Virus record (IMG/VR): IMGVR_UViG_2778261637_000006
Source: a virus
Lineage: Duplodnaviria; Heunggongvirae; Uroviricota; Caudoviricetes
DNA length: 41,036 bases
Direction: 5' to 3' (one strand)
In this document: positions 574-41,036 of the stretch, in pieces
Numbering within the stretch: position 1 is the first letter of the stretch
Layout of the letters: every line of letters starts with the position of its first letter
The notes under the pieces: generated by a model
Databases searched by the model: none
The model's input: the letters and a program-made list of their open reading frames with translations, nothing else
Told to the model about the DNA's origin: nothing
Translations under genes and position numbers: made by a program

Positions 574-628
574 TAAAAATACTCCCTTTTGAGTGGTTAA
601 AGTACTGAGATAATGTGGGGAGGATTTG

Positions 629-1638: not shown

Positions 1639-2253
1639 TCAGCTGGCAAGTGCCAGTGGCGCTTCCGGCCAGCTGATTTCAGGTGCCGTGCTGATATCCA
1701 GTGCGTTCAGCTCGTCGATATAATCCAGCACGGCGTTCAGTTTTGCCGTTTCTTCTGGTGTCAGACTGCGACCAGCACGCAGTTTGAGGTTGATAAGATC
1801 GACGGACGCCATCGCCTGTTTCACCCGTTGCTGGCGTTGCTGTCTGGCAACCTCCAGTTCTGCGGCTCGCTGCCGTTCAGTATCGGTTACCCACGCCTCA
1901 CCGTTCCAGGTATCCCATGGCGTGGCCGGCTGTTTTGTGGTGGTGTCCGCCGGGTAATCACCCGGTTGGGTAATCAGAACGGGGTTACCGTTCTCCGTGC
2001 TGTATACCGTCTCGCCGCGGTGATCAGGCACATGCTCCCACCCGTTCAGCGTGGCAGTCCGGCAAACCACGTAACCCGAAATTGCCTCCGGCGGTGCATC
2101 GGCGCACGAATGTGCCGGAGTACCCACCCCAAGGGCGAGATACTCCACAGAGGATGAGGTGTATTCCCGGGTTTCCTCGTCATAGTGATATACAGTGATC
2201 TCGCCCGCTACAGTGGCGATACCGTTTTCATCCAGAACTGCAGTGTTACTCAT
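1639..2253 (-). CDS. Tail-fibre assembly protein (Mu U / Tfa family)
   Basis: 204 aa immediately downstream of the fibre gene with 1-nt overlap; Tfa-like N-terminus MSNTAVLDENG and C-terminal region. Confidence 0.8.
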   Translation of the reverse strand: MSNTAVLDENGIATVAGEITVYHYDEETREYTSSSVEYLALGVGTPAHSCADAPPEAISGYVVCRTATLNGWEHVPDHRGETVYSTENGNPVLITQPGDYPADTTTKQPATPWDTWNGEAWVTDTERQRAAELEVARQQRQQRVKQAMASVDLINLKLRAGRSLTPEETAKLNAVLDYIDELNALDISTAPEISWPEAPLALAS

Positions 2254-4190
2254 TAAACTGCCCTCACAATGTAATTAAGTGCAATGCTACGGGGTCTGAC
2301 AGTGATACCCTTCGCATACCCGCTTCTGATAGAGGTCAGAATAGTAGCCTGCATACCATTGTCTGACATTGCCACGACAGGATCGCTGAATGTTGTCCCG
2401 TCCGGCATTTTAAAGCTGCCCTCACGAAGGTCTGTAATGGAATCTTCATTGTTGAATCCCATGCCGACTATCCCCGAGGTTCCCGTAGTGTCCTGGTTAT
2501 AATAATCCAGCATTGCTGTTCTTAACAGCGTTGCCCCTTGTGCGGACAGCAACTTACGTCCTGTATCAACTTTGCGCCCGTCGTCCCATCCACGGATAAA
2601 CTCACCGCGTAAATCGGGAAGACGGAGGGTCGGGTAGACTCTGGCCAGAACAGGATATTGTTCTTTTGTAAAGGCGCGCCCGTCGCACTTTAACCAGCCT
2701 GCTGGCGGTGTGGCGGTGGGCCACGGAACAGGCACACCAACGGGTAGCGCCGAGCCTTCTCCTAAACCAAGGTAATTGAGGACATCTTTTATACTGCCCT
2801 TAGCGATAATAGCGCGACCAATAGCTGTAAGGGTTGCCAGCGCTGCGCGGTCTGCTCCGGTAAAATAAGGCAACCGATCTGCTGCAGTGGCAAGTCCTGC
2901 CAGAGCAGTGAGCGTGGCATCTGCCGGTTGTTTTCCGTTTGCCAGATCGTATGCAGCCTTGACCGCTTTCGGTGTGGCGGCCAGTATTTCAGACGTGCTG
3001 TTGATGGCACTGCTCAATTGTATGGTGCCTTTTGCCGTCAGCGAGGCAGCAGGCACTCCCGTTATCTGACTCCACGGGTGAGTGTGGCTGACGGGCGCCT
3101 TGCCGGCTGCAAGGTCGTATGCAGCCTTGACCGCCTTCGGCGTGGCAGCCTCAGTTTCTGATTGACTGTCCGTGGCGCTGCTCAGTTGTACGGTGCCTTT
3201 TGCCGTCAGCGAGGCAGCAGGCACTCCCGTTATCTGACTCCACGGGTGAGTGTGGCTGACGGGGGCCTTGCCGGCAGCCAGGTCATATGCAGCCTTGACG
3301 GCCTTTGGTGTGGCGGCCAGCGTTTCAGAGGTGCTGTTGGTGGCACTGCTCAGTTGTACGATCCCTTTACGGGTCGTTGTTGCATCCTGGGCTGTGTATT
3401 TTCCCCGGGCCAGATCATACGCGATTTTCACAGCCTTCGGCGTGGCAGCCTCAGTTTCTGATTGACTGTCCGTGGCGCTGCTCAGTTGTACGGTGCCTTT
3501 TGCCGTCAGCGAGGCAGCAGGCACTCCCGTTATCTGACTCCACGGGTGAGTGTGGCTGACGGGGGCCTTGCCGGCAGCCAGGTCATATGCAGCCTTGACG
3601 GCCTTTGGTGTGGCGGCCAGCGTTTCAGAGGTGCTGTTGGTGGCACTGCTCAGTTGTACGATCCCTTTACGGGTCGTTGTTGCATCCTGGGCTGTGTATT
3701 TTCCCCGGGCCAGATCATACGCGATTTTCACAGCCTTCGGCGTGGCAGCCTCAGTTTCTGATTGACTGTCCGTGGCACTGCTCAGCTGTACGGTGCCTTT
3801 TGCCGTCAGCGAGGCAGCAGGCACTCCCGTTATCTGACTCCACGGGTGAGTGTGACTGACGGGTGCCTTGCCGGCTGCAAGGTCGTATGCAGCCTTGACG
3901 GCTTTTGGTGTGGCGGCCAGCGTTTCAGAGGTGCTGTTGGTGGCACTGCTCAGTTGGGTGAACCCCTTAGCTGTCAGTGTCGCGTCCGGGTGGTTACGGG
4001 AACGTACGTGTTCAGCCAGTGACTGTGCGGCTTCCTCCGTTTTTTTCTTCAGCCATTTCGTCCTGTTTGCCAGTTGCCGGGGGGCTCGATTTGATATCCC
4101 GTCAGCACCACCCAGAACCGGATCTGATGTCTCCAGTTGATAGATTTTTTCTTCCCACTTTTCTGTTTCATTCAGGTTTCCCATAATCAA
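2253..4190 (-). CDS. Tail fibre protein (Mu S-like) with internal repeats; currently fused variable tip
   Basis: 645 aa; repeated ~100-aa units (TAKGTVQLSSATDSQSETEAATPKAVK...); C-terminal 170 aa begins with the shared LGEGSALPVG block. Confidence 0.9.
   Translation of the reverse strand: MIMGNLNETEKWEEKIYQLETSDPVLGGADGISNRAPRQLANRTKWLKKKTEEAAQSLAEHVRSRNHPDATLTAKGFTQLSSATNSTSETLAATPKAVKAAYDLAAGKAPVSHTHPWSQITGVPAASLTAKGTVQLSSATDSQSETEAATPKAVKIAYDLARGKYTAQDATTTRKGIVQLSSATNSTSETLAATPKAVKAAYDLAAGKAPVSHTHPWSQITGVPAASLTAKGTVQLSSATDSQSETEAATPKAVKIAYDLARGKYTAQDATTTRKGIVQLSSATNSTSETLAATPKAVKAAYDLAAGKAPVSHTHPWSQITGVPAASLTAKGTVQLSSATDSQSETEAATPKAVKAAYDLAAGKAPVSHTHPWSQITGVPAASLTAKGTIQLSSAINSTSEILAATPKAVKAAYDLANGKQPADATLTALAGLATAADRLPYFTGADRAALATLTAIGRAIIAKGSIKDVLNYLGLGEGSALPVGVPVPWPTATPPAGWLKCDGRAFTKEQYPVLARVYPTLRLPDLRGEFIRGWDDGRKVDTGRKLLSAQGATLLRTAMLDYYNQDTTGTSGIVGMGFNNEDSITDLREGSFKMPDGTTFSDPVVAMSDNGMQATILTSIRSGYAKGITVRPRSIALNYIVRAV
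2570..2784 (-). repeat. Copy C of the homology block, inverted relative to A and B, inside the fibre gene; candidate crossover core at about 2759..2784
   Basis: Reverse complement reads CCTTGGTTTAGGAGAAGGCTC followed by ~190 bp near-identical to copy A. Confidence 0.5.
2860..3960. repeat. Tandem direct repeat, 300-bp unit, about 3.5 copies, in-frame in the fibre gene
   Basis: Identical stretches at 3121, 3421 and 3721 (cagccttcggcgtggcagcctcagtttctgattgactgtccgtggc); shadow ORFs 3162..3461 and 3462..3761 are identical. Confidence 0.85.
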
Positions 4191-26255: not shown

Positions 26256-26999
26256 ATGACGCAGACACTGAATCCGGTCATCACTGTCACCGTGTCCGGT
26301 CCTGTGGGCAGCGGTAAAAGTTACATATTGGCGCGGATAGAGGAAGTGGTGAAACAGGAATTCGGGGGCAGCGTCATTGTCGATGCTGCAGACGTAGATG
26401 ATGAGCGGCGTATGAGTGGCGATGATCTGACGACCTGGCAGAAGCCACGGGGTGGCACAGTGATCAGGCTGGAGGAATACACGGGACAGGGCCTGTTGTC
26501 ATACGGCGAGGAGCGTATCTGTCGGACGAATGAGCTGCTGGATGTTATATGCCCCACGGGCCGGCAACCCTGGATACTGCCCGATGCACTGCATGCCACC
26601 ATTGCGGCACTGATGACAGTTTACGATCAGGAGCTGCTCATGAAGGAGCTACGTAAACTCACCGGTCAGCCAACAGAATGTTTTTCTGCCCCGAAGTACG
26701 GGAAACAGGAACACATCCCGGTGAACACGCTCCCCGTTAACCAGCCTCCCCGGTTCTTCGACGAATACATTCTGACACCGGAAAATAAAGCTGAGCACGA
26801 AGAGATCAAAGCGGCGTTGTTCCGGGAAATCAGGAAGATTGCTGAAATGCAACTGGGGGGCGGGCTGGACAGAGTGATGGCGAGAGGAGAATGGGAGTCG
26901 CTGTTTGAAAGAGTTTCCCCGGAATTACTTCCCCTCGCACTGGCTATCGGGATTATGCAGACAGCGGATAAACCTCACTTACGTTCATTAAACACGTAA
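26256..26999 (+). CDS. P-loop NTPase/kinase-like protein of unknown function
   Basis: 247 aa; Walker A VSGPVGSGKSY at residues 13-22, Walker-B-like SVIVDAADVDDE; GAGGAG SD; opposite strand to the adjacent late genes. Confidence 0.7.
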   Translation: MTQTLNPVITVTVSGPVGSGKSYILARIEEVVKQEFGGSVIVDAADVDDERRMSGDDLTTWQKPRGGTVIRLEEYTGQGLLSYGEERICRTNELLDVICPTGRQPWILPDALHATIAALMTVYDQELLMKELRKLTGQPTECFSAPKYGKQEHIPVNTLPVNQPPRFFDEYILTPENKAEHEEIKAALFREIRKIAEMQLGGGLDRVMARGEWESLFERVSPELLPLALAIGIMQTADKPHLRSLNT

Positions 27000-27379
27000 C
27001 GCATAATCCGGGATACGCATTCAGCGATGACTGCATTTTCACCGGTTTTTACTGCATCCAGAAGTGACTCTTTAAATGGTGCGGGCCGGGGCTGCAGAAG
27101 GGTCGGCGTGGCATTGAGCAGACGGAGCGTTTTTTCCGTGAGGACGACATCAGCCGCTCCCACAGCCAGCAACTGAGAGTAACGAATATAGCTGTTATCC
27201 CGAAGCCATATCAGCGTATCAATAAAATACCGGCACTTTTTCTGGTCGTGATCAACCTGGTCCGGGATATCGAAAAAACCAGAATAAATCAAAACCTGAG
27301 GTGCCGGATGCGTGTTCAGTAATCGGCAGAATATTTTGCCGGTGAGTGCATAAAAATCATCATTTAAGGAGTGCATCAT
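26975..27379 (-). CDS. Hypothetical protein (134 aa)
   Basis: Non-repetitive ORF convergent with the P-loop gene (25-nt overlap); no clear Mor/C-family HTH. Confidence 0.45.
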   Translation of the reverse strand: MMHSLNDDFYALTGKIFCRLLNTHPAPQVLIYSGFFDIPDQVDHDQKKCRYFIDTLIWLRDNSYIRYSQLLAVGAADVVLTEKTLRLLNATPTLLQPRPAPFKESLLDAVKTGENAVIAECVSRIMRYVFNERK

Positions 27380-27593
27380 GAATCCCCGATTAACGTTAAC
27401 AGAACATCAGCGCCGTGCTGAAGCAGTGAACAATGTTCTGGAAGATATTATCCGGTTACATCGCGGAGAACTGAGTGTCTGTCGTGCCGCTTTTCATTTT
27501 CAGGGAATACAAAAGCAGTTTGATACTTCTGTTTTTGCAGAAGGTATTACTTATGCCCTGGACCGGATAAGGTCAGAAAATCGCCCCGGATAA
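27378..27593 (+). CDS. Hypothetical small protein (71 aa)
   Basis: ATG with AAGGAG SD 6 nt upstream. Confidence 0.5.
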   Translation: MNPRLTLTEHQRRAEAVNNVLEDIIRLHRGELSVCRAAFHFQGIQKQFDTSVFAEGITYALDRIRSENRPG

Positions 27594-27784
27594 TCCCTAA
27601 ACCACATTAACAGAAATCCCACTATCCCTGCCGCATCATGAAAGAACGACCAGCCCGGTGCTTCGGACCCACCGGGCTGGCCATCGTCCCACAGAAGTGG
27701 CTGTGAGCCGACCGAGGTTCAGTCAGTCTCGCGAGACCAGACTAGCCTGCCATATTTTTAATAATTGTAAAAGGCTTACAGATT

Positions 27785-28549
27785 ATGAAAATGAAGACAT
27801 TACCCATCGTTCCATGGATTGGTGGCAAACGTCGCCTGGCAAAACACATCCTGCCGCTGTTTCCGGCGCATGAATGTTATGTGGAGCCGTTTTGTGGGGC
27901 AGCAGCGCTCTATTTTCTTAAGACACCCGGCAAGATCGAAGTCATCAATGATATCAACGGTGAACTGGTGAATCTGTACCGGGTGGTAAAGCATCACCTG
28001 GAAGAATTTGTCCGCCAGTTCAAATGGGCGCTGGTCAGCCGTCAGATCTACAAATGGCTGCAGATCACCCCGGAAGAAACACTGACGGATATCCAGCGTG
28101 CGGCACGGTTCTACTACCTTCAGAAGCAGGCGTTTGGCGGCAAGGTGGCAGAGCACAGCTTCGGTACCTCCACCACATCCCCGCCACGCTTCAACCTGCT
28201 GCGTATTGAAGAAGAACTGTCAGCAGCACACCTGCGGCTTTCCAGAACAGTCATAGAACACATGGACTGGCAACAGTGCATTGAGCGTTATGATCGTCCG
28301 CACACACTGTTCTACTGCGACCCACCGTACCTGGGTACGGAAGGCTATGGTGTGGATTTTCCTGAAGGGAACTACTCGCGGCTGGCAGAGCTGGCCCGGT
28401 GCATCAGAGGAAAAATGATAATTTCGGTGAACGATATCCCACAGATGCGCGAGGTGTTCACTGGACTGAACATACAGACAGTGAACATCAACTACAGTCT
28501 GGCGGGGAAATCTACGCCGCGCCGTGAACTGGTAATCTGCAACTTCTGA
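27785..28549 (+). CDS. DNA N6-adenine methyltransferase, Dam-like
   Basis: 254 aa; AdoMet motif FCGAAALYF then catalytic DPPY (FYCDPPYLG) in the order typical of Dam-type enzymes. Confidence 0.85.
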   Translation: MKMKTLPIVPWIGGKRRLAKHILPLFPAHECYVEPFCGAAALYFLKTPGKIEVINDINGELVNLYRVVKHHLEEFVRQFKWALVSRQIYKWLQITPEETLTDIQRAARFYYLQKQAFGGKVAEHSFGTSTTSPPRFNLLRIEEELSAAHLRLSRTVIEHMDWQQCIERYDRPHTLFYCDPPYLGTEGYGVDFPEGNYSRLAELARCIRGKMIISVNDIPQMREVFTGLNIQTVNINYSLAGKSTPRRELVICNF

Positions 28550-28552
28550 AAC

Positions 28553-28585
28553 AAAACCGGAAAGCACAATGCTTTCCGGTAAACC
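28553..28585 (-). terminator. Hairpin between convergent Dam and repressor genes; likely terminator for the repressor transcript
   Basis: Perfect 10-bp stem ACCGGAAAGC/GCTTTCCGGT, 5-nt loop; on the minus-strand RNA followed by UUUGUUU. Confidence 0.5.
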
Positions 28586-28665
28586 AAACAACTTCCACTA
28601 TGTCACTGGCGATGTTTTCTGAAAGCATCCAGATCAACCACCTGTCCTTTGTGTCCAGGTCAAAA

Positions 28666-29004
28666 TCAGCCTGCGAGTTTGCTTGGTTTGGGTTGAATGA
28701 AGACTTTGCCGACCTCAAGAATTGCCCTCCGTTGTTCGGGGCTCATTTCGTCGAATGCATCCATTAACTCTTTCTTTTCTTGTGACACATAAGGTGCAAC
28801 AACAGGCTGACTCCGCACCCCAGTAACTACATACAAAATATCTACACCGATTTCTGATAGTGCAGATAACTGCACTGCAGTAGGAGAAGTGCGATCTTTT
28901 TCCCAATCAATGAAAGTTCTCTTTGCCACACCTATAGCATCAGCCAACCCTTGCTGTGTAAGAGATAGACGCTCTCTTTCTTCTTTAATACGTAACCCGA
29001 TCAT
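28666..29004 (-). CDS. Prophage repressor candidate, XRE-family HTH
   Basis: 112 aa from ATG at 29004; HTH LSLTQQGLADAIGVAKRTFIDWEKDRTSP; divergent from the early operon. Confidence 0.75.
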   Translation of the reverse strand: MIGLRIKEERERLSLTQQGLADAIGVAKRTFIDWEKDRTSPTAVQLSALSEIGVDILYVVTGVRSQPVVAPYVSQEKKELMDAFDEMSPEQRRAILEVGKVFIQPKPSKLAG

Positions 29005-29028
29005 GTGAGTTTTTCTGCACTCTTTAAG

Positions 29029-29057
29029 TTGACTGGTGAGGTAATCTGCACCATAAT
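29029..29057 (+). promoter_or_regulatory. Candidate sigma70 early promoter for the ner-like/transposase operon
   Basis: TTGACT (29029..29034), 17-nt spacer, CATAAT (29052..29057); AAGGAG SD 6 nt before ATG 29105. Confidence 0.45.
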
Positions 29058-29104
29058 CTATCACACATAAGGCAAACATCATTGCATCAACAAAGGAGAC
29101 AACG

Positions 29105-29293
29105 ATGACTGCAGAACAAGTCAAAGCTCTCTTCCGCCAGCGCGGGATCACTTTCACCCGCTGGGCAGAAGAAAACGGCTACAACCGCAATGAGGTATAC
29201 CGCGTTCTCAATGGGCAGACCAAAGCCCGTTACGGTAAATCCCATGAAATCGCCGTGAAGTTGGGGCTGAAATCAACAGCTCAGGCAGCCTGA
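29105..29293 (+). CDS. Ner/Cro-like small DNA-binding protein
   Basis: 62 aa, first gene of the early operon, HTH-like ITFTRWAEENGYNRNEVYRVLNG. Confidence 0.55.
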   Translation: MTAEQVKALFRQRGITFTRWAEENGYNRNEVYRVLNGQTKARYGKSHEIAVKLGLKSTAQAA

Positions 29294-29345
29294 AGATTTT
29301 GAGTCTTTGTAAAAGGTTATCACATATCGCAAAAGAGGTATGCAG

Positions 29346-29654
29346 ATGAGTAAGACGAATGTTTCAAGCTCCGGCAGTCGCATCCTCCGGGTACTCAAAG
29401 CGCTGCGCGGTCATGCCCTGAACGGTATTTCCAACGGTGAACTGGCGGCAGCACTGCACGAGTCACCGGCAAACATCAACCGGGCACTCAACACCCTCAT
29501 TGAAGAAGGGTTGGCCCTGAAACTGGAAAACGGGCGTTTCGCGCCGGGCATCCAGTTACTGCAGATCGCTATGGCCCACAGTAACGAGATGGCACGTGCA
29601 CAGGATCGCATTAACGAAATCAACCAACGTGTCATTTCAGGTAGTCGTTTGTAA
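29346..29654 (+). CDS. Winged-helix-like putative regulator
   Basis: About 102 aa; ATG 29346 has better SD spacing than 29340; ISNGELAAALHESPANINRALNTLIEEGL resembles wHTH. Confidence 0.5.
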   Translation: MSKTNVSSSGSRILRVLKALRGHALNGISNGELAAALHESPANINRALNTLIEEGLALKLENGRFAPGIQLLQIAMAHSNEMARAQDRINEINQRVISGSRL

Positions 29655-29664
29655 GGAGTAATAA

Positions 29665-30576
29665 ATGGGACGCACCAAATCACCGATTAACACTGAACTG
29701 AACGCCGAGGTACCGCTGTCGGATGATCTCAATGTCAGTCTGAACGCCATGACACAGCATCGTATGGAGATCATGCAGCAGTTTGGCGATGGTCAGCCCT
29801 ATGAGCGTGATCGCATAGTTCATGAGGCTCGGTTTTATATGGCACAGAGCGCTGAGGCCATGCTGGAAGCAGGTAAACGACTTATTATTCTCAAAGAAAA
29901 TGAACCTCACGGGGACTTTGTTGGAATTGTAGAAGAACAACTTGGTCTGCATGTGCGCGCAGCACAACGAATGATGAAAGCATCTTTGAAATACCTTTCA
30001 CCAAAACTAGAGCCAAAAGCGACAACGTTGTCGCTTTTAGGTAAGGCAAAATTATTTGAACTTGTTGCTGAAGATGACGACGACCTTGCTGAACTGGCCG
30101 ACGGTGGCACAGTTGCCGGACTGACGCTTGACGATGTTGATCGCATGTCAGTACGTGAATTGCGTCAGGCCCTGCGCGAAGCGCGCGAAACCAACGCAGC
30201 ACAACAGCGCGTACTCGCCGACAAAAATGAAAAAATAGACTCACTCTCCACCAGACTGGAGAAGAAATCCCGTATTCAGCCACCTGAGCCTGATGAAGAG
30301 GTGAAGAAACTGCGGGCAGAAGTGACCGCGTTAGCGGTTGAGGCGGAATCTGCCATCGCCGTTCGACTGTCCAGCGCTTTTGAGACGCTGTGCGCATATT
30401 GTGCTGAAAACATGATTGATACCCCCAGAGACTTCATGGCAGGCCTGGTCTGTCAACTGGAAAGCACAGCGCGTAGCCTGCGCTCCACATTTGACCTGCC
30501 GGACGAGCCAACAGGCAATGCAGCGCCTTCATGGCTGACTGAGCCGACGCCACAGATTAACGGGCTGGAGGCATAA
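29665..30576 (+). CDS. Hypothetical protein with acidic/coiled-coil middle
   Basis: 303 aa, AAGGAG SD; between the ner-like gene and the transposase. Confidence 0.55.
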   Translation: MGRTKSPINTELNAEVPLSDDLNVSLNAMTQHRMEIMQQFGDGQPYERDRIVHEARFYMAQSAEAMLEAGKRLIILKENEPHGDFVGIVEEQLGLHVRAAQRMMKASLKYLSPKLEPKATTLSLLGKAKLFELVAEDDDDLAELADGGTVAGLTLDDVDRMSVRELRQALREARETNAAQQRVLADKNEKIDSLSTRLEKKSRIQPPEPDEEVKKLRAEVTALAVEAESAIAVRLSSAFETLCAYCAENMIDTPRDFMAGLVCQLESTARSLRSTFDLPDEPTGNAAPSWLTEPTPQINGLEA

Positions 30577-30579
30577 CCA

Positions 30580-32349
30580 ATGAATGCTGCCCTGACTGAA
30601 CGACTGGTTTATGTCGCCCGCGCGGCACGTGACGCGGGGCATGGTAAACGCGGCGCAGTATACGACGCTGCCTGTGCTGAACTTGGCATGTCCCGCGCCA
30701 CTCTGCTGCGCAGGCTGAAGGAGGTATCTGTGACTGATAAACGCAAAAAACGCGCCGATGCCGGGCGCAGCGCCCTGACCCGCGACGAAGCCGCGCTGAT
30801 ATCTGCCACACTGCGTGAGGCCACCCGCAAGAACGGTAAGCGTCTCTATTCCATCGCGGATGCAGTGGAAACCCTGCGGGCTAACGGCTTTATATCCGCA
30901 GGCAGAACAGATGAAACCACCGGTGAGTTTTTCCCGTTGTCCGAAGATGCCATCAGCCGAGCCCTGCGTAACTATGGCCTGCACCCGGAACAACTGGATG
31001 CCCCTGCGCCGCATACCGAAGTGGCCAGTCTGCATCCCAATCATGTCTGGCAGATTGACGCCTCACTCTGCACGCTTTACTACCTGAGCAATGGACATAA
31101 AGGGCTGCAGGTGATGGACAGCGCGAAGTTCTACAAGAACAAGCCCGCTAACCTTGCCCGTATCGCCAGTGACCGCGTGTGGAGTTACGAGATTACCGAC
31201 CATGCCAGCGGCTGGATTTACGTTGAGTATGTGACGGGCGCGGAATCAGGTGAGAACCTGTGTTCTGTGCTTATCAACGCCATGCAGGAGCGTGGCGGCG
31301 CAGACGTGCTGCACGGTGTGCCGAAAATACTCTATCTCGACCCCGGCTCGGCAAACACCGCGGGTATGACGAAAAACATGTGCCGCTCACTGGGCATCGA
31401 CCTGATAGCGCACAAGCCGCATAACGCCCGCGCCACCGGACAGGTGGAAAAGGCGCGGGACATTATCGAACGCAAGCTGGAGCCGGGTCTGAAGTTCCGG
31501 CCGGTTCACAGTCTGGAAGAACTCAACGCGCTGGCCGCGAAATGGCGCAGCCACTTTAACGCCACGGCTGTTCACAGCCGCCACGGTAAAACCCGCACGG
31601 ATATCTGGCTGAAGATTACTGCTGAGCAGCTGAAAAAAGCGCCTTCCGTTGAGGTATGTCGTGAACTGGCTGTGGCGGCACCAGAACTCCGCAAAGTCAC
31701 GCCAAAACTTCGTGTCTCGTTCCGGGGCACTGAATTTGACGTATCAACGGTACCGGGCGTACTGGTTGGTGAAAAACTGATGATTACCCGTAACCCGTGG
31801 CGCAGCGATGTGGCACAGGTGGTTCTGACCGGTGAGGACGGCCACGAGACGTTCTTCCTGGTCGAAGAGGTCAGAAAGAACGAGTTTGGCTTTGCTGAAG
31901 GCGCGGCGGTATTTGGCGAAAGTTACAAAGCCCTGCCGGAAACCCCGGCGCAGATGGCGGCAAAAGAAACCGAAGCGCTGGTCACCGGTACAGACAACGC
32001 CGCAGATGCAGCTGCCGCACGCAAGGCGAAGGCGCTGCCGTTCGGCGGGCGGCTTGACCCGTATAAACATATCGACGACACCACACTTCCGGCCTATATG
32101 CCGAAGCGTGGTCAGGCCTCTGACGTACGCGGGCCGCGCACTGAACAACGTCCCATGACTTATGTGGAGGCCGCGAAAGCCCTGCGCGATAAGTTCAGCG
32201 CCAACGGCTTTACCTGGACGCCGGAACATTACCGCCAGTTAACGGCACAGTATCCGGACGGCGTACCGGAAGCCGCACTGGATGAAGTCATGGCCACGCT
32301 GACCACGCCGGCCCGCAGCAGCGTTATCAGTATTGTTAACGGCAACTGA
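30580..32349 (+). CDS. DDE transposase, Mu A-like (rve/integrase core)
   Basis: 589 aa; integrase-core-like region from about residue 150 (HVWQIDASL, ILYLDPGSANT); followed by B-like ATPase and Gam. Confidence 0.85.
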   Translation: MNAALTERLVYVARAARDAGHGKRGAVYDAACAELGMSRATLLRRLKEVSVTDKRKKRADAGRSALTRDEAALISATLREATRKNGKRLYSIADAVETLRANGFISAGRTDETTGEFFPLSEDAISRALRNYGLHPEQLDAPAPHTEVASLHPNHVWQIDASLCTLYYLSNGHKGLQVMDSAKFYKNKPANLARIASDRVWSYEITDHASGWIYVEYVTGAESGENLCSVLINAMQERGGADVLHGVPKILYLDPGSANTAGMTKNMCRSLGIDLIAHKPHNARATGQVEKARDIIERKLEPGLKFRPVHSLEELNALAAKWRSHFNATAVHSRHGKTRTDIWLKITAEQLKKAPSVEVCRELAVAAPELRKVTPKLRVSFRGTEFDVSTVPGVLVGEKLMITRNPWRSDVAQVVLTGEDGHETFFLVEEVRKNEFGFAEGAAVFGESYKALPETPAQMAAKETEALVTGTDNAADAAAARKAKALPFGGRLDPYKHIDDTTLPAYMPKRGQASDVRGPRTEQRPMTYVEAAKALRDKFSANGFTWTPEHYRQLTAQYPDGVPEAALDEVMATLTTPARSSVISIVNGN

Positions 32350-32359
32350 GGAGGGAAAC

Positions 32360-33526
32360 ATGCTGGTACTGAAGCAGCAACTGAAAGAAGCCCGTATTCC
32401 ACAGGCGGTGGTGGCGAGAGCTGTCGATGTTTCTGAGGCCACGCTGGCCCAGATTGTGAATCATAACGCGTGGCCCCGCACCAGCCCCGGAGAAGTGCGC
32501 CGGCGTCTTGCGTCCTGGCTGGAAAGTCAGGGGATTGATACAACGAAGAGTTTTGATGCTGTACAGGGCGCGGCCACGCCCCGTACAGCGGGTACCACAG
32601 ATAAAACGAGCCTCAGTGAGGAAGAGAATATGTTACTCAAAAAACAGGTGTTATTTCCAGCAACCAAAAAAGCGTTTGGTCTTTTCCGTGACCCGTTCGC
32701 CGACGAAGCCATGCAGGGTTCTGATGATGTGTTCACCACCCCGGATATTCGCTACGTGCGTGAGGCGTTGTACCAGACAGCCCGTCATGGTGGGTTTATG
32801 GCCGTCATCGGTGAGTCCGGTGCGGGTAAATCCACGCTGCGCCGCGACCTGACTGAACGTATCAACCGCGAGAATGCGCCGGTAATTGTTATCGAGCCAT
32901 ACATCATCGCTATGGAAGACAACGATGTGAAAGGGAAAACCCTGAAGGCAGCAGCGATTGCCGAAGCCATTATCAGTACCATCGCACCACTGGAAAGCAT
33001 CAGACGCAGTCAGGACGCCCGCTTTCGCCAGTTGCATCGCGTCCTGAAAGACAGCAGCCAGGCGGGGTTCAGCCACGTTCTGGTGATTGAGGAGGCCCAC
33101 AGTCTGCCCATTCCGACACTGAAACACCTCAAACGCTTTTTTGAGCTGGAGTCCGGTTTCAAAAAACTGCTGTCCATCGTGCTGATTGGCCAGCCGGAAC
33201 TGGCGACAAAACTGTCTGAACGCAATATGGAAGTCCGTGAAGTCGTTCAGCGCTGTGAGGTGGTCGAACTTCTGCCTCTGGACAATAACCTTGAAGAGTT
33301 TCTGACGTTCAAACTGCAACGGGCCGGTAAACAACTGACGGACATTATGGACGCCAGCGCAGTGGATGCCATACGTGCCCGCCTGAGCAATCCGGGAAGT
33401 CATCGTAAAAATATGGTCAGCCTGCTGTATCCGCTGGCCGTCAGTAACCTGGTAATAGCCGCCATGAATCTGGCCGCTGAAATCGGGGTTCCACAGGTCA
33501 ACGCTGACGTTGTCAAAGGGGTTTAA
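32360..33526 (+). CDS. Transposition ATPase, Mu B-like (AAA+)
   Basis: 388 aa from ATG 32360 with GAGGAGGG SD; N-terminal HTH, Walker A GESGAGKST, Walker B HVLVIEEAH. Confidence 0.8.
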   Translation: MLVLKQQLKEARIPQAVVARAVDVSEATLAQIVNHNAWPRTSPGEVRRRLASWLESQGIDTTKSFDAVQGAATPRTAGTTDKTSLSEEENMLLKKQVLFPATKKAFGLFRDPFADEAMQGSDDVFTTPDIRYVREALYQTARHGGFMAVIGESGAGKSTLRRDLTERINRENAPVIVIEPYIIAMEDNDVKGKTLKAAAIAEAIISTIAPLESIRRSQDARFRQLHRVLKDSSQAGFSHVLVIEEAHSLPIPTLKHLKRFFELESGFKKLLSIVLIGQPELATKLSERNMEVREVVQRCEVVELLPLDNNLEEFLTFKLQRAGKQLTDIMDASAVDAIRARLSNPGSHRKNMVSLLYPLAVSNLVIAAMNLAAEIGVPQVNADVVKGV

Positions 33527-33528
33527 TA

Positions 33529-33798
33529 ATGAAATCCACCACAGGTATCAACCAGCAAATCAGCAAAGTGCAGTCAGCCATTATGGCGCTTAAGGCGACG
33601 AACACGGATGTACAAAGCATCACCATCAGGGGTAACAAACCTGTCATCCGCGTTTCCCGGAGTGCGCATTGCATGCGCATGCTTGAGCAGGGAAAGGCCT
33701 GTTATCTGTATACCGGTCATGACCACAGGGGACATTTCCGTCAGGGCGTTTTCGAACTGCACGGCTGTCGCGTCGTGTGGCCGGAATCTTTGTGGTAA
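33529..33798 (+). CDS. Hypothetical small early protein
   Basis: 89 aa, several Cys/His; coupled to the B-like gene. Confidence 0.5.
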   Translation: MKSTTGINQQISKVQSAIMALKATNTDVQSITIRGNKPVIRVSRSAHCMRMLEQGKACYLYTGHDHRGHFRQGVFELHGCRVVWPESLW

Positions 33799-33825
33799 TC
33801 AGCACAACAGGAGGAGTCATAAAAT

Positions 33826-34356
33826 ATGGCAAAAAGTACAAAAGGGGCAAAACGTATCAAAGCCGCAGCAGCACTCTGGGTGCCGGGGACACGCGAAGAG
33901 GTCATTGAGGGAATCAGACTGCTTGGTGACGCGCAACGTGAACTGGTCAGGGCTGAAACAGAAATGAATGACACCATTGGCGACATCACCGCACGTTATG
34001 CCCCGCTCACCGAGAGCCTGAAAAAACGCATGGCCGAACTGCAGTCCGGTATTCAGACATGGTGTGAGGCACACCGTGATGAACTGACCGGCAACGGGAA
34101 GGTGAAGTTCGCTAACCTCACCACCGGCGAGGTGCAGTGGCGAAACCGTCCGCCGTCAGTCAGTATCCGTGGGGCGGATAATGTTATTGAATTACTGAGA
34201 CGTCTGGGGCTTGAGCGCTTTATCCGTGTAAAGGAGGAAATAAATAAAGACGCCATCCTGAATGAAAAGGACGCCGTGAAAAATATTCCCGGTATTACCA
34301 TAAAAAGTGATATTGAGGATTTTTCAATAATTCCTTTTGAGCAGAATGTGCAGTAA
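33826..34356 (+). CDS. gam: Host-nuclease inhibitor Gam (Mu Gam / Ku-like)
   Basis: 176 aa; blocks such as RIKAAAALWVP, WCEAHRDELTGNGKVKFANLTTGEVQWRNRPPSVSIRG, GIEDFSIIPFEQ match Mu Gam as recalled. Confidence 0.9.
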   Translation: MAKSTKGAKRIKAAAALWVPGTREEVIEGIRLLGDAQRELVRAETEMNDTIGDITARYAPLTESLKKRMAELQSGIQTWCEAHRDELTGNGKVKFANLTTGEVQWRNRPPSVSIRGADNVIELLRRLGLERFIRVKEEINKDAILNEKDAVKNIPGITIKSDIEDFSIIPFEQNVQ

Positions 34357-34452
34357 AAACAGCATATAAGCTATTTAAAACAGCCTTTTCTTTTTTATTC
34401 CGGCATCAGCGCCGTGGGCTTCTGCACGCCGGAAACAGAGGAGAATTAAATC

Positions 34453-34647
34453 ATGATATTTAAATGTATTCAGTGCGAGAGGGATATAACAGCCCTGCGT
34501 TTTCACAGCGCCATCGCCGTGATGTCCGGTAAGTACCACGTACCTGCAGTACGCGTCACCCTGGTCTGTCCGTACTGCAGTCAGCATTTTTCGGCAGACG
34601 TGCCCGTCATGGAATTCTCCCGCCCTGACAGGGAGGACTCGCAATGA
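34453..34647 (+). CDS. Small zinc-ribbon-like protein
   Basis: 64 aa with CIQC and CPYC pairs. Confidence 0.5.
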   Translation: MIFKCIQCERDITALRFHSAIAVMSGKYHVPAVRVTLVCPYCSQHFSADVPVMEFSRPDREDSQ

Positions 34648-34916
34648 TTACCCCACAGGAAGCACGACAGCGCACCCGAACCCTTGTTGAACACTATGTC
34701 AACGAGTGTGAATGCCGCGACCTCACCGATGTGAAGCACGTCCTGACGGCGCTAATCAGCATGACCGCTCAGGCCATTGTGGCGACCAACGGAAAGGCGG
34801 CTGCCCTGCAGGTACTGGTGAACACACTCACCCACACGGCAGAGCACGATGTGCCGTACCGGATGGAAACCACTGCAGAAGGCGGCCTGAACATCACCGT
34901 CGACCGGAAACACTGA
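34644..34916 (+). CDS. Hypothetical small protein
   Basis: 90-aa ORF coupled to neighbours. Confidence 0.5.
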   Translation: MITPQEARQRTRTLVEHYVNECECRDLTDVKHVLTALISMTAQAIVATNGKAAALQVLVNTLTHTAEHDVPYRMETTAEGGLNITVDRKH

Positions 34917-34925
34917 GGGCGCGGC

Positions 34926-35231
34926 ATGACACGGAACACCGAACTCACCCGCACCGCCCTCTACCGTCTGGCCCTGCAGCGTTTCGGGCCGGACGCACAG
35001 GCCCTGAAACTGACAGAAGAGGCCGCTGAACTGGCGGCCAGTGCCGCCCGCAACCTGAACGGACAGGGCAGCGAAAGTGACCTCGCGGCAGAGCTGGCAG
35101 ACGTGGAAATCATGACAGAGCAGCTGCGCCTTCAGGGAATGGACCGGCTGATTGACTTCCACAAACAGAAAAAACTGGAACGCCTTGCCGCACGGCTGGG
35201 CGTCATGTACACCGGAGATACTGAACAATGA
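34926..35231 (+). CDS. MazG-like nucleotide pyrophosphohydrolase-type small protein (tentative)
   Basis: 101 aa with acidic helices TEEAAELAASAA and AAELADVEIMTEQL resembling MazG-like metal-binding motifs. Confidence 0.45.
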   Translation: MTRNTELTRTALYRLALQRFGPDAQALKLTEEAAELAASAARNLNGQGSESDLAAELADVEIMTEQLRLQGMDRLIDFHKQKKLERLAARLGVMYTGDTEQ

Positions 35232-35911
35232 CAGACCAGGATAAACACATTGAGAAACTGAAAAAGTTGCTGGCGCTGGCCGCATCCGGCAACCCTCACG
35301 AGGCCGCTCTGGCACTGCGCCGTGCCCGTAAACTGATGGATGTTCACGGCATCACACATTCCGACATCGCCATGAGTGATATTGATGAAACCATCAGTCA
35401 CTACTGGCCGACAGGCAGCCTCCGTCCACCGCGCTACATGCTGGGCCTGATGAACATCATCCGCGAGGCATTTGGTGTTAACTCCATCATTCACCCCGGC
35501 ACATATCCGGGTGTGGGGTTCTACGGCAACCGGGAACGGGCTGCACTGGCTGCGTACACCTGGGAAGTGCTGGCCCGCCAGCTGAAAAAGGCGCGTCAGC
35601 AATATATCAGCGCACAGAACAAAAGAATAAAAACTGCCACCCGTACCAGCCGTGGTGACCAGTTTGCTGAAGGCTGGGTGCTGGCCGTTATCAGTGAAAT
35701 ACAGTCCTTCGCCCTGACCGATGACGAACGTGAACTGATGCAGCAGTGGCTGGAACATAAATACCCGCAGACGCAAACCACCAGGGCGCGTAAACCGGGA
35801 AGAAGCCGCAATGGCGACGCCTCGCGCTATGCGGGGTTTCTTGAAGGGCAGAACGTCAGACTGCACCGCCCGGTCAGTGGGCAGGAACAACAGAAACTGG
35901 AGGCCAGATGA
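35228..35911 (+). CDS. DUF2786-like early protein
   Basis: 227 aa; N-terminus IEKLKKLLALAASGNPHEAALALRRARKLMDVHGI. Confidence 0.55.
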   Translation: MTDQDKHIEKLKKLLALAASGNPHEAALALRRARKLMDVHGITHSDIAMSDIDETISHYWPTGSLRPPRYMLGLMNIIREAFGVNSIIHPGTYPGVGFYGNRERAALAAYTWEVLARQLKKARQQYISAQNKRIKTATRTSRGDQFAEGWVLAVISEIQSFALTDDERELMQQWLEHKYPQTQTTRARKPGRSRNGDASRYAGFLEGQNVRLHRPVSGQEQQKLEAR

Positions 35912-36138
35912 TTACGCTATCAGGTAAAAGCCGGAAATTAAAAGCCTGCCGAATATCTGCCAGATACCTTTTTGCCCGCGCCTTTTTTAAGAACGTCAGG
36001 CCGGGGATCACAATTGGTGTTATTGCCGGACGCGAACAGGTTGAAAAATACATGTCAGGTGCATGGTGGAATAACGACCCTGTCATTGCTGCCCGTAATA
36101 TTCATATCAGTTGGGGGGATATTCAGAATGACGGCTGA
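35908..36138 (+). CDS. Hypothetical basic small protein
   Basis: 76 aa, ATGA overlap with the upstream gene. Confidence 0.4.
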   Translation: MITLSGKSRKLKACRISARYLFARAFFKNVRPGITIGVIAGREQVEKYMSGAWWNNDPVIAARNIHISWGDIQNDG

Positions 36139-36343
36139 ATCTGTTGTATGTGCCCTGTTCTGGTATTGTTTTGTCGGTTGGTGTACTGCTGAACTGCACC
36201 GCCGTTCAGGGTTTTATTCACGTTACAGTGGTGCTGGCTACTGGATTAGCTGGTCGGTGATGTTCCTGTGCTGGCCTGTGGCGCTTCCTTTATATGTCGA
36301 TTATATCGGTGGCGCAGGTAAAAGGAGCAACGATGATGACTAA
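36128..36343 (+). CDS. Small membrane protein (two predicted TM helices)
   Basis: 71 aa from ATG 36128; hydrophobic segments VVCALFWYCFVGWC and WISWSVMFLCWPVALPLYV. Confidence 0.45.
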   Translation: MTAESVVCALFWYCFVGWCTAELHRRSGFYSRYSGAGYWISWSVMFLCWPVALPLYVDYIGGAGKRSNDDD

Positions 36344-36785
36344 ACAACGTCTTATCCAGCTCATTCATATTGCCCGTAATGAACTGGGTATGGATGAAGA
36401 CACCTACCGCCAGATGTTACAGGGGCTGACCGGTAAAGCCTCAACCAAAGGAATGGATACCACACAACTAAACTGCGTGCTGGAATCCATGAAAAGGAAA
36501 GGCTTTCGCGTTAAGCCTGCCGGAAAAGCCAGCTCCGGTTTACCGCTGGATAACCATCCGCAGTCCAGGAAAATCCGTGCGCTATGGCTTGAAATGGCTG
36601 CTGCCGGCATTGTTCGTGACCGTTCAGAAAATGCATTAGCGCGGTGGATCAAGCGGGAAACGGGCATCAGCGCCCTGCGCTGGCTCAGTACTGAACAGGC
36701 AAGCAGTGTTATTGAGAAACTGAAGAAGTGGCAGCGCAGAGCTGCGGGAGTCAAACATGAGCGACCTGAATCAGTTTCGAAGTAA
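36333..36785 (+). CDS. GemA-like protein (Mu gp16, DUF1018-like)
   Basis: 150 aa from ATG 36333 with AAAGGAG SD; immediately upstream of mor as in Mu. Confidence 0.6.
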   Translation: MMTKQRLIQLIHIARNELGMDEDTYRQMLQGLTGKASTKGMDTTQLNCVLESMKRKGFRVKPAGKASSGLPLDNHPQSRKIRALWLEMAAAGIVRDRSENALARWIKRETGISALRWLSTEQASSVIEKLKKWQRRAAGVKHERPESVSK

Positions 36786-37155
36786 AGGGCCGGAACTCCT
36801 GGTGGAGCTGGCACAGCATACCTCTGAGACCGTTCGCGAGATTATTGATATTGAGCCCGCAATTGCCGACCAGATTGGTCAGGCCGTCGCGAACCGAATG
36901 ATGCAGGTCTGGGGCGGGCAAAACGTTTATTTCCCGATGGGCATGGTATGGAAGGTCAGTCAGCGCGACCGGGAAATCTTCAGGGAGTTTAACGGACGCA
37001 ACCACCACGAACTGGCCCGCAAGTTTGGTGTTTCGCTTCAGTGGGTCTACAGCGTGGTTAAGCGGGTCAGAAAAGAAGAACTGGATCGGATGCAGGGCAG
37101 GTTGTTTGATGAAGATCTGCCAGAGGAGACGAAAGACGTTAACAAATCCAGATAA
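36757..37155 (+). CDS. mor: Middle operon regulator Mor (Mor/C family activator)
   Basis: 132 aa; C-terminal HTH FNGRNHHELARKFGVSLQWVYSVVKRVR matches the Mor pattern. Confidence 0.8.
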   Translation: MSDLNQFRSKGPELLVELAQHTSETVREIIDIEPAIADQIGQAVANRMMQVWGGQNVYFPMGMVWKVSQRDREIFREFNGRNHHELARKFGVSLQWVYSVVKRVRKEELDRMQGRLFDEDLPEETKDVNKSR

Positions 37156-37198
37156 TTCCTGCTTGTTAAAGTCCTTTCAAAAATCTCCTTATTGTATA

Positions 37199-37231
37199 AA
37201 AGCACGGTAGACCCCTTACCGTGCTTTTTTT
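37199..37231 (+). terminator. Rho-independent terminator after mor
   Basis: Stem AGCACGGTA / TACCGTGCT with 7-nt loop followed by TTTTTTT. Confidence 0.8.
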
Positions 37232-37269
37232 ATGCTCTCTCTTTAGTATTCAGGATGCAGGGAGAAAAT

Positions 37270-37902
37270 ATGTTTGACGTTTCGTTGTTAAATCTGCCAT
37301 GGGCAACACTGGTGACCCTGACCAGTGGCTATATTGGGTATTTTATTGCGAATGTGGGACTGAAGGATCACCACAAGCCCATTGAGGTGACTTTTTCTTC
37401 GCTGATTTTTGGCCTGACAGCAATGATGGCTTACCAGGCTGTTATGTGGGCAGGTCTGAATGCCTGGCTGGCAACACCACCAGCACTTCTGTGTGCCCTT
37501 ACATGCGGTGCGTGGTGGCGCAGGTACGGTCGCAAATGGATGTACAGATTACTGTGGAATAATGATATTTCATGGTCTGACGATACCAGCTCAGCATGGC
37601 AGGCAATGTTTGATCAAACAGGCTTCAGCGTTACCGAGGTCAGAGTGATTCTTCGCGATGGTTCCGGTATGATGTCACGGCTGCCAGGGAACTTTGAAGA
37701 GTGGCCTAACGGTCCGTTTACCCTGGGGAATAAAGGCGATATGGTTCTTTACGTCACGCACAGCAGCCCTTCAGGCAGTAACGAATGGGAAGAGTATAAA
37801 GGCGTGGTTGATAAGTACTGGGGAGCTCTGGCAACCTATATTCCAGCAGATCAGATTGCCAGAGTGGAGATCAGGCGCGTTCGTGCAACGAACGATGAAT
37901 GA
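37270..37902 (+). CDS. Membrane protein of unknown function (cargo near the prophage edge)
   Basis: 210 aa from ATG 37270 with GGGAGAA SD; about three N-terminal TM helices then ~110-aa soluble domain; after the mor terminator. Confidence 0.6.
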   Translation: MFDVSLLNLPWATLVTLTSGYIGYFIANVGLKDHHKPIEVTFSSLIFGLTAMMAYQAVMWAGLNAWLATPPALLCALTCGAWWRRYGRKWMYRLLWNNDISWSDDTSSAWQAMFDQTGFSVTEVRVILRDGSGMMSRLPGNFEEWPNGPFTLGNKGDMVLYVTHSSPSGSNEWEEYKGVVDKYWGALATYIPADQIARVEIRRVRATNDE

Positions 37903-38474
37903 TGTTTATTTTTTCCCTGGGGCAGGGGCTGCCGGCATAGTGGTTTTATTGGCAGAGGAAGACGATTCTCCTTTTCTACCGGAATCGCGCTCGAACGTCA
38001 CGATGTGCTTGCTTTTGGGCTTTTCTGAGTAATCCAGGCTATCATGCTTATTGTTTTGAGTAGTCATTGGAATCATCCTTTTTGTTGCGGGTCATGTTTC
38101 AGCAAACTCGATTCTAAGTTGCCAGGAAGGATGATTTCAATGCCCGACTTATCTATCGTATAGCGGAAAAGAATTTCAGTTCTGTTCACCAGAACCCATG
38201 TTAACCCACTCCAATTCGTTATTTATCTCACGGATCCCCCTTCATTTATCTCATGTCTGATCATTTATTCAACCGACGCAATTTTGCGTACCTGCTTCAT
38301 AAGCATCACGCAAAAGCTGCAAAACAGCATCTTTCCCGGAATCACCATCAAGAACTCGCCGTTCGCTTCTTCCCCTGAAATGATTAACTCCGGTATCATG
38401 TGCGCCTTATGTGATTACAACGAAAATAAAAACCATCACACCTCATTTAATATCAGGGAACCGGACATAACCCC

Positions 38475-41036
38475 ATGAGTGCAATAGAAAATTTCGATGC
38501 CCATACGCCCATGATGCAGCAGTATCTCAAGCTGAAAGCCCAGCATCCCGAGATCCTGCTGTTTTACCGGATGGGTGATTTTTATGAACTGTTTTATGAC
38601 GACGCAAAACGCGCGTCGCAACTGCTGGATATTTCACTGACCAAACGCGGTGCTTCGGCGGGAGAGCCGATCCCGATGGCGGGGATCCCCTACCATGCGG
38701 TGGAAAACTACCTCGCCAAACTGGTGAATCAGGGCGAGTCCGTTGCCATCTGCGAACAAATTGGCGATCCAGCGACCAGCAAAGGTCCGGTTGAGCGCAA
38801 AGTTGTGCGTATCGTTACGCCGGGCACCATCAGCGATGAAGCGCTGTTGCAGGAGCGTCAGGATAACCTGCTGGCGGCTATCTGGCAGGACAGCAAAGGT
38901 TTCGGCTACGCGACGCTGGATATCAGTTCCGGGCGTTTTCGCCTGAGCGAACCGGCTGACCGCGAAACGATGGCGGCAGAGCTGCAACGCACTAATCCGG
39001 CAGAGCTGTTGTATGCAGAAAATTTCGCCGAGATGTCGCTGATTGAAGGTCGTCGCGGACTGCGCCGTCGCCCGCTGTGGGAGTTTGAAATCGACACCGC
39101 GCGCCAGCAGTTGAACCTGCAATTTGGCACCCGCGATCTGGTCGGTTTTGGCGTCGAGAACGCGCCGCGCGGACTTTGTGCTGCCGGTTGTCTGTTGCAG
39201 TATGCGAAAGATACTCAACGCACGACCCTGCCGCATATTCGTTCTATCACCATGGAACGTGAGCAGGACAGCATCATTATGGATGCCGCGACGCGTCGTA
39301 ACCTGGAAATTACCCAGAACCTGGCGGGCGGTGCGGAAAATACGCTGGCTTCTGTGCTCGACTGCACCGTCACGCCGATGGGCAGCCGTATGCTGAAACG
39401 CTGGCTGCATATGCCAGTGCGCGATACCCGCGTCTTGCTTGAGCGCCAGCAAACTATTGGCGCATTGCAGGATTTCACCGCCGAGCTGCAGCCGGTACTG
39501 CGTCAGGTCGGCGACCTGGAACGTATTCTGGCGCGTCTGGCTTTACGAACTGCTCGCCCACGCGATCTGGCCCGTATGCGTCACGCTTTCCAGCAACTGC
39601 CGGAGCTGCGCGCGCAGTTAGAAAATGTCGATAGCGCTCCGGTACAGGCGCTGCGTGAAAAAATGGGCGAGTTTGCCGAGCTGCGCGATCTGCTGGAGCG
39701 AGCAATCATCGACACACCGCCGGTGCTGGTACGCGACGGTGGTGTTATCGCACCGGGCTATAACGAAGAGCTGGATGAGTGGCGCGCGCTGGCTGACGGC
39801 GCGACCGATTATCTGGAGCGTCTGGAAGTCCGCGAGCGTGAACGTACTGGCCTGGACACCCTGAAAGTCGGCTTTAACGCGGTTCATGGTTATTACATTC
39901 AGATCAGCCGTGGACAAAGCCATCTGGCACCCATCAATTACATGCGTCGCCAGACGCTGAAAAACGCCGAGCGCTACATTATTCCAGAGCTAAAAGAGTA
40001 CGAAGACAAAGTTCTCACTTCAAAAGGCAAAGCACTGGCACTGGAAAAACAGCTTTATGAAGAGCTGTTCGACCTGCTGTTGCCGCATCTGGAAGCGTTG
40101 CAACAGAGCGCGAGCGCACTGGCGGAACTCGACGTGCTGGTGAACCTGGCGGAACGGGCCTATACCCTGAACTACACCTGCCCGACCTTTATTGATAAAC
40201 CGGGTATTCGCATCACCGAAGGCCGCCATCCGGTGGTTGAACAGGTGCTGAATGAGCCGTTTATCGCCAACCCGCTGAACCTGTCGCCGCAGCGTCGCAT
40301 GTTGATCATTACCGGTCCGAATATGGGCGGTAAAAGTACCTATATGCGCCAGACCGCACTGATTGCGCTGATGGCCTACATCGGCAGCTATGTACCGGCA
40401 CAAAAAGTCGAGATTGGACCTATCGATCGCATCTTTACCCGCGTAGGGGCAGCGGATGATCTGGCATCCGGGCGTTCAACCTTTATGGTGGAAATGACCG
40501 AAACCGCCAATATTTTACATAACGCCACCGAGTACAGTCTGGTACTGATGGATGAGATTGGGCGCGGGACGTCCACTTACGATGGTCTGTCGCTGGCGTG
40601 GGCGTGCGCGGAAAATCTGGCGAATAAGATTAAAGCGTTGACGTTGTTTGCCACCCACTATTTCGAGCTGACCCAGTTACCGGAGAAAATGGAAGGCGTC
40701 GCCAACGTGCATCTCGATGCACTGGAGCACGGCGACACCATTGCCTTTATGCACAGCGTGCAGGATGGCGCGGCGAGCAAAAGCTACGGCCTGGCGGTTG
40801 CAGCCCTTGCGGGCGTGCCAAAAGAGGTGATCAAACGCGCGCGGCAGAAACTGCGTGAGCTGGAGAGCATTTCGCCGAATGCCGCCGCGACGCAGGTAGA
40901 TGGCACGCAGATGTCTTTGCTGTCCGTACCAGAAGAAACTTCGCCTGCGGTCGAGGCACTGGAAAACCTCGACCCGGATTCACTGACTCCGCGTCAGGCG
41001 CTGGAGTGGATTTATCGCTTGAAGAGTCTGGTGTAA
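38475..41036 (+). CDS. mutS: DNA mismatch repair protein MutS (host chromosomal)
   Basis: 853 aa, full length with TAA stop at 41034..41036; mismatch-binding N-terminus and Walker [10 protein letters not shown]; reads as E. coli MutS. Confidence 0.97.

Follow-up and report, generated by a model that had tools for sequence, protein, structure and literature searches.

Coliphage Mu duplicates 5 bp of target DNA, and in Mu proper all genes except the repressor are transcribed in one direction. A different arrangement, with an early operon that is inverted with respect to the late genes, has been described for the transposable phages BcepMu and B3 (PMC2771037, PMC5977238). BcepMu has also been described as being without a tail-fibre inversion system (PMC2771037); the length of its target duplication is not given in the KS10 paper. 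On the chromosomal side, the interval fhlA/-/mutS has been described as a hotspot at which Enterobacteriaceae gain and lose islands; in Salmonella, SPI-1 is located there (PMC7232297). The mutS transcript starts at -74 with a 74-nt leader, which carries an Hfq (AAN)3 motif at -50 to -42 and an ArcZ pairing site at -26 to -15, and the documented control of mutS acts on this leader through Hfq and ArcZ (PMC5580658).

The window analysed here is a stretch of 41,036 nucleotides (IMG/VR record IMGVR_UViG_2778261637_000006) that consists almost wholly of one prophage, followed by mutS. The 572 bp in front of mutS (37903-38474) divide into a phage end of 361 bp (37903-38263) and 211 bp of native mutS upstream DNA (38264-38474). 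We are highly confident that this region represents the Mor-proximal end of a BcepMu/B3-type transposable prophage joined to the mutS-proximal 211 bp of the ygbA-mutS spacer. The coordinates of all features are collected in Table 1.

Table 1. Features of the window and target duplications of two other prophage copies (window coordinates, except where a locus number starting with L is given)
Feature	Position	Strand	Remarks
BcepMu/B3-type transposable prophage, nearly complete	1-38263		100% identity over 24,964 bp to copies at other loci
Gin-like serine invertase (Resolvase + HTH_7)	1-702	-	Other phage end, left edge of the window
DDE (rve) transposase, 589 aa	30580-32349	+	Pfam rve only; phrog_310
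AAA+ 'DNA transposition protein' (ExeA-like, MuB analogue)	32333-33526	+	AAA_22; phrog_296; RefSeq 'ExeA family protein'
Mor-family transcription activator	36757-37155	+	Pfam Mor, E = 1e-43
Intrinsic terminator after mor	37198-37228	+	Terminator scan
Accessory ORF, 210 aa	37270-37902	+	phrog_12870; three N-terminal helices, C-terminal small beta-barrel (AF2)
Accessory ORF, 53 aa, hydrophilic, Lys/Ser-rich, reads inward	37906-38067	-	phrog_15726, E = 1e-41; WP_001571575.1 in S7 and ST131
Left arm of inverted repeat	38065-38080		Covers Shine-Dalgarno and start codon of the 53-aa ORF
Promoter-like site TTGAAA-18-TAGAAT for the 53-aa ORF	38111-38140	-	10/12 consensus positions
Right arm of inverted repeat	38127-38142		Covers -35 hexamer and some of the spacer in the promoter of the 53-aa ORF
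Terminator-like hairpin (GGTTCTGGTGAACAGAACT + T-rich tail)	38178-38196	-	Near the phage terminus, upstream of the small-ORF promoter
Two subterminal direct repeats	38221-38230, 38244-38253	-	Presumed transposase sites
Terminal TGATCA	38258-38263		Phage DNA ends ...CA-3' at 38263
TTTATT, mutS-side copy of the target duplication	38264-38269		Inferred from the 6-bp length in two other copies
Native mutS-proximal ygbA-mutS spacer, 211 bp, promoter and leader	38264-38474	+	100% identical to empty-site strain 98227
mutS 74-nt leader	38401-38474	+	PMC5580658 positions mapped onto the window
Hfq (AAN)3 site ARN1 (AAUAAAAAC)	38425-38433	+	Mapped from -50 to -42
ArcZ pairing site	38449-38460	+	Mapped from -26 to -15
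mutS, intact, 853 aa	38475-41036	+	Protein identical to MutS of strain 98227
Duplication flanks, S7 copy	L003 1185-1195, 39318-39328		ATAAAG
Duplication flanks, ST131 copy	L007 170-180, 38515-38525		CGCTGT

The gene content of the prophage was taken from the copies in strains S7 and ST131, and a Pfam search of the window itself returned Mor, rve, AAA_22 and Resolvase. Open reading frames on the minus strand, from position 1 to about 26,158, encode lysis, head and P2-like tail genes. The early genes occupy the plus strand from about 26,256 to 37,902, and the two divergent clusters meet at about 26-29 kb. In tblastn comparisons covering 98-100% of the protein, the transposase was 68% identical to BcepMu TnpA and 56% identical to B3 TnpA, and the gene for its AAA+ transposition partner directly adjoins it. 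Thus the element shares with the BcepMu-like phages (Burkholderia BcepMu and phiE255) and the B3-like Pseudomonas phages a related transposase with an adjacent ExeA-like AAA+ partner, an early cluster on one strand with the lysis and P2-like tail cluster on the other, terminal CA ends and scattered insertion sites. It differs from them in its enterobacterial host and in an end-proximal accessory module of its own (phrog_12870 and phrog_15726). In contrast to BcepMu, it also carries a Gin-like invertase and inverted tail-fibre segments.

The original prediction had considered the insertion in terms of a Mu-type element. Likeness to coliphage Mu is indeed found in the transposition lifestyle, the TG..CA ends with presumed subterminal transposase sites, the Mor-, Gam- and Gin-like genes and the short target duplication. 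A Mu (Muvirus) prophage in the strict sense would likewise account for Mor, Gam, gp16, the Gin-like invertase, the TG..CA ends and the scattered insertion sites. However, the transposase belongs to another family without MuA domains: rve was the only domain detected in the Pfam search, neither of the Mu-specific domains (Mu DNA-binding, Mu-transposase C-terminal) was found, and the protein resembles those of BcepMu and B3. No Mu record appeared among 40 sampled rows of the tblastn result or in the organism tally of its 69 phage hits. Moreover, early and late genes are divergent, the early operon running opposite to the late genes, and the target duplication measures 6 bp and not 5 bp. A strict Mu prophage is therefore extremely improbable. 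Mu proper is refuted by three defining features, namely transposase type, duplication length and gene direction, and the element is a transposable phage of the BcepMu/B3 type.

At the left edge of the window, the invertase adjoins oppositely oriented fragments of tail-fibre and assembly genes (1154-2253). Judged from the gene arrangement, this indicates a putative invertible host-range segment. The neighbouring tail-fibre ORF (2253-4190, minus strand) contains a 300-bp tandem repeat of 2.7 copies that are 98% identical (3133-3956), overlapped by an array with a period of 168 bp (2940-3368). This tandem-repeat region has an unusual composition, with a GC content of 0.60 and an AT skew of -0.35.

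The closest named isolate is Escherichia phage PhiKM (PQ738613), which is 95% identical over the early region. The match to PhiKM stops at about position 37115 of the window, and the PhiKM record is without the end module seen here. A literature search did not retrieve a paper on PhiKM. The prophage of E. coli strain S7 is 100% identical over 25 kb, and all other copies (S7, ABU 83972, ST131) occupy other chromosomal sites. Among 5,426 complete E. coli genomes, the phage body was present in 612 (about 11%), at many loci and in up to three places per genome. Some of these copies were 100% identical and yet lay at different coordinates. Identical copies at scattered loci are the pattern expected of a recently active element that inserts nearly at random. 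The end module with its two accessory genes was found in only 118 of the 612 genomes with a phage body; there, this end variant is located near irp1, yodD, gudD, zraS, yeiB, xylR and other loci.

Next to mutS, the original prediction had placed a prophage-host junction close to or within the native upstream region and had proposed to locate it by alignment to prophage-free E. coli sequence. Megablast of 37600-38700 against the 5,426 genomes gave a clean split into left and right matches. On the left, the hit was to the S7 prophage in yeiB; on the right, 5,419 genomes aligned with their DNA upstream of mutS, and the two matches met at about 38264-38271. The overlap of a few bases arises because the yeiB target (CTTTAT) resembles the target used here (TTTATT). 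Base-level alignments set the breakpoint at 38263/38264. Window and S7 prophage agree up to ...CATGTCTGATCA, which ends with the last base of the prophage at 38263, and agreement with the prophage-free E. coli strain 98227 runs from TTTATTCAACCG (38264) onward, within the ygbA-mutS spacer. The insertion thus lies in the native mutS upstream region, as had been proposed, and the distance from the prophage end to the mutS ATG is 211 bp. It was also correctly recognised that the stretch follows prophage cargo (the phrog_12870 ORF) and that the approximately 570 bp upstream of mutS contain no intact host gene; the sole annotation in 37903-38474 is a doubtful ORF of 44 aa, which PGAP calls in empty sites.

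The position of the phage terminus was examined in copies from other bacteria. In six other copies, from four genera, the similarity breaks off precisely at 38263. The ends in E. coli 3-72, Citrobacter braakii, Serratia sp. Ag1 (two copies) and Salmonella diarizonae can be aligned as far as ...GTCT(G/C)ATCA, beyond which they differ completely; the same phage end is found in S7 and ST131. Since the similarity across genera stops at ...ATCA, 38263 is the true phage terminus and not a point of truncation. The Mor-proximal end of an E. coli BcepMu-type phage is now defined to the base.

Terminal repeats of Mu type had been reported as unrecognisable in this region. We found a terminal TGATCA and, subterminally, two direct repeats ATTTATCTCA (read inward, GAGATAAAT) of 10 bp each and 23 bp apart. 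At its other end, the S7 copy has the motif in an identical register, and the motif is conserved across genera. Read inward, the Mor-proximal end is TGATCAGACATGAGATAAATGAAGGGGGATCCGTGAGATAAATA and the other phage end, as seen in the S7 and ST131 copies, is TGATGCGCCGCGCGATAAATGCACTCTATCTTGTGCGATAAATG. Both ends have a TGAT tip followed by two GATAAAT-type motifs, again in the same register and 23 bp apart, and they read TGATCAGACATGAGATAAATG...GAGATAAATA and TGATGCGCCGCGCGATAAATG...GCGATAAATG. The element therefore has TG...CA termini with inverted subterminal repeats, the Mor-proximal end lying in the window and the other end in the S7 and ST131 copies. The two ATTTATCTCA repeats are presumed to be binding sites of the transposase.

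The length of the target-site duplication was obtained from two other copies of the prophage, in which it amounts to 6 bp: ATAAAG in yeiB (S7) and CGCTGT at yodD (ST131 strain). Intact yeiB reads GTGAATAAAGCCC, and after the insertion the two junctions read ...AATAAAG/TGATCAG... and ...GCATCA/ATAAAGCCC. In the ST131 strain, CGCTGT flanks both phage ends at yodD. A Mu-like duplication of 5 bp was considered as well; the S7 copy in yeiB alone allowed 5-7 bp, and the ST131 copy at yodD fixed the length at 6 bp. The four flanks on the Mor side (CTTTAT, TTTATT, ACAGCG and GCTTCT) show no strict consensus. From the 6-bp length in these copies we infer that TTTATT next to the prophage end is one copy of the target duplication here, with the other copy outside the window.

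The window begins at the stop codon of the invertase gene, and about 74 bp separate it from the other phage end and the second junction. An assembly artefact, in which one of the many phage-host junction reads of a transposable phage was joined to the mutS contig, would be compatible with this, as the second junction falls beyond the window, and also with the absence of the joined prophage-mutS junction from all other complete E. coli genomes (0/5,426 by megablast). A randomly transposing phage, however, is itself expected to yield unique sites, and the join occurs exactly at the authentic terminal CA and is followed by uninterrupted host sequence. We regard an artefact as highly improbable and the junction as that of a prophage inserted in the ygbA-mutS spacer. 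The phage would have arrived by transposition, with its terminal 3'-OH groups attacking the target with a stagger of 6 bp and with TTTATT as the hexamer used. The other junction would then be expected to read ...GGAGGAGGTTTATT/TGATGCGCCGCG... (...GAAGGAGGAGGTTTATT/TGATGCGCCGCGCGATAAATG...), with TTTATT at both junctions. Such an insertion would have moved ygbA about 38 kb away from mutS and would have spared the coding sequence of mutS, its core promoter and the 74-nt leader, in which the Hfq and ArcZ sites lie.

Where the site is empty, fhlA is followed by a small TOBE gene, ygbA (minus strand), a spacer of 286 bp, mutS, pphB and ygbI. The insertion hexamer precedes both start codons, that of ygbA by 75-81 bp and that of mutS by 205-211 bp. 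This spacer is uninterrupted in 5,405 of the 5,426 complete E. coli genomes. The locus had previously been associated with the polymorphic mutS-rpoS region. This assignment does not hold, as the insertion is 5' of mutS and that region lies 3' of it, with pphB and ygbI (the rpoS side) downstream. The relevant interval is fhlA/-/mutS (PMC7232297), into which a prophage between ygbA and mutS fits. The occupant found here is a randomly transposing phage and not a site-specific island.

One of the genomes in which the spacer is interrupted is that of E. coli p4A (NZ_CP049085.2, L013 5990-6010). Here, ygbA has been lost in a deletion of 1.43 kb, and the mutS upstream region follows directly on the middle of fhlA. 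The endpoint on the mutS side lies 2 bp inside the hexamer equivalent to window positions 38264-38269. The join shows no microhomology, and there is no phage at this place. Based on the shared position, the A/T-rich hexamer TTTATT may be a recurrent breakpoint, either a fragile or a preferred site, or the correspondence may be a coincidence.

We then considered mutS itself, for which the original prediction had suggested that the insertion could alter expression. The gene is intact, as had been stated, and over the whole host stretch (38264-41036, 2,773 bp) there are two differences from strain 98227, both synonymous. Compared with K-12, the retained 211 bp contain ordinary allelic differences only. 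The suggestion of altered expression would lose ground if the native promoter were fully intact, the prophage end well upstream and mutS expression unchanged. The first two of these points apply at the sequence level: the 211 bp are an exact match to the empty site, the published mutS start (about 38401) lies 137 bp inside host DNA, and the Hfq and ArcZ sites are intact. With core promoter, leader and coding sequence untouched, mutS is most likely expressed normally.

Several routes to a change in mutS expression, and hence in mutation rate, are nevertheless possible. Transcripts could read through from the end-proximal phage ORF, upstream elements or the coupling with the divergent ygbA promoter could have been lost, or silencing could spread from the prophage. 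No intrinsic terminator was predicted on the plus strand between 37902 and mutS (38475), so that read-through from the prophage into mutS is formally possible; the folding of the sequence after 37902 gave unremarkable hairpins (z = -0.9). In addition, the native DNA upstream of the mutS start is cut to 137 bp, and the divergent ygbA promoter region adjoins the insertion point in the empty site. Against these points stand the exact match of the core promoter and the whole leader to the empty-site strain and the documented control of mutS via the leader, Hfq and ArcZ (PMC5580658). No promoter-like site on the plus strand, outward or hybrid, was predicted in 37000-38600, a weak test as the same scan misses the native mutS promoter. 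The conserved promoter at 38140-38111 points the opposite way, towards the phage interior. We consider it very unlikely that the insertion changes mutS expression. It appears equally unlikely that the prophage end would feed transcripts into mutS or otherwise shift its expression, in which case being lysogenic here would adjust mismatch repair and the mutation rate. If the prophage did change MutS levels, lysogeny would be linked to mutation rate. As it stands, with the known control elements of mutS intact, this is a common and known prophage at a new insertion site, an ordinary finding of little consequence. On the minus strand, the terminator-like hairpin near the phage terminus could stop transcripts that run in from host DNA; strain 3-72, whose copy is 85% identical, has not conserved this hairpin.

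The phage end behind the mor terminator carries a convergent module of two accessory genes. Neither product had a Pfam or PADLOC match. All homologues of the 210-aa protein are hypothetical, and a few distant relatives carry DUF6338. Its AF2 model has a pLDDT of 82.6. A Foldseek search of the PDB with this model gave nothing below E = 0.1, with a weak Sm-like resemblance of the C-terminal barrel. For the 53-aa ORF, both promoter hexamers and their spacing are conserved in the relatives from Citrobacter, Serratia and Salmonella.

Within this module, an inverted repeat of 11 bp had been noted as the only obvious structure of the region. The repeat is real. Its coordinates had been off by one base, and the 11-mers given for it are not perfectly complementary; the structure is 16 nt long with one mismatch, and its arms (38065-38080 and 38127-38142) are 46 nt apart. 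The perfect core is AATCATCCTT (38071-38080) and AAGGATGATT (38127-38136). No comparable inverted repeat was obtained in 300 shuffles of the region. It is not the only structure either, as the terminal repeats are present as well, and it belongs to the promoter and ribosome-binding region of a phage gene. A role as part of the terminal repeats or the junction was ruled out, since it sits 121-198 bp inside the phage end. The inverted repeat is thus a feature of the phage module and not of the insertion.

Both arms are conserved in relatives from Citrobacter, Serratia and Salmonella (four genera in all), and the DNA between them varies. As plus-strand RNA, 97.9% of cells pair across six sequences. 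There is one covarying pair (T-A to C-G), and 38 of 500 shuffles gave as much. Folding energies were -32.5 kcal/mol for the plus strand versus -22.9 kcal/mol for the minus strand. An Rfam search of 37100-38600 with E values up to 1 returned two chance-level hits only. Two readings are compatible with these data. The arms may form a pair of protein-binding sites, that is, a DNA operator, or they may fold into an RNA hairpin, which would mask the ribosome-binding site in transcripts that come in from outside.

A relic of a related phage end was also observed outside the chromosome. About 145 bp, 89.7% identical and including both ATTTATCTCA repeats, are found on about 105 E. coli plasmids, mostly from poultry. 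The relic corresponds to window positions 38110-38254 and to L004 4001-4144 (plasmid p1 of strain 181.1). On the plasmid it is unannotated and is located between an IS3 remnant and a LysR-family gene.
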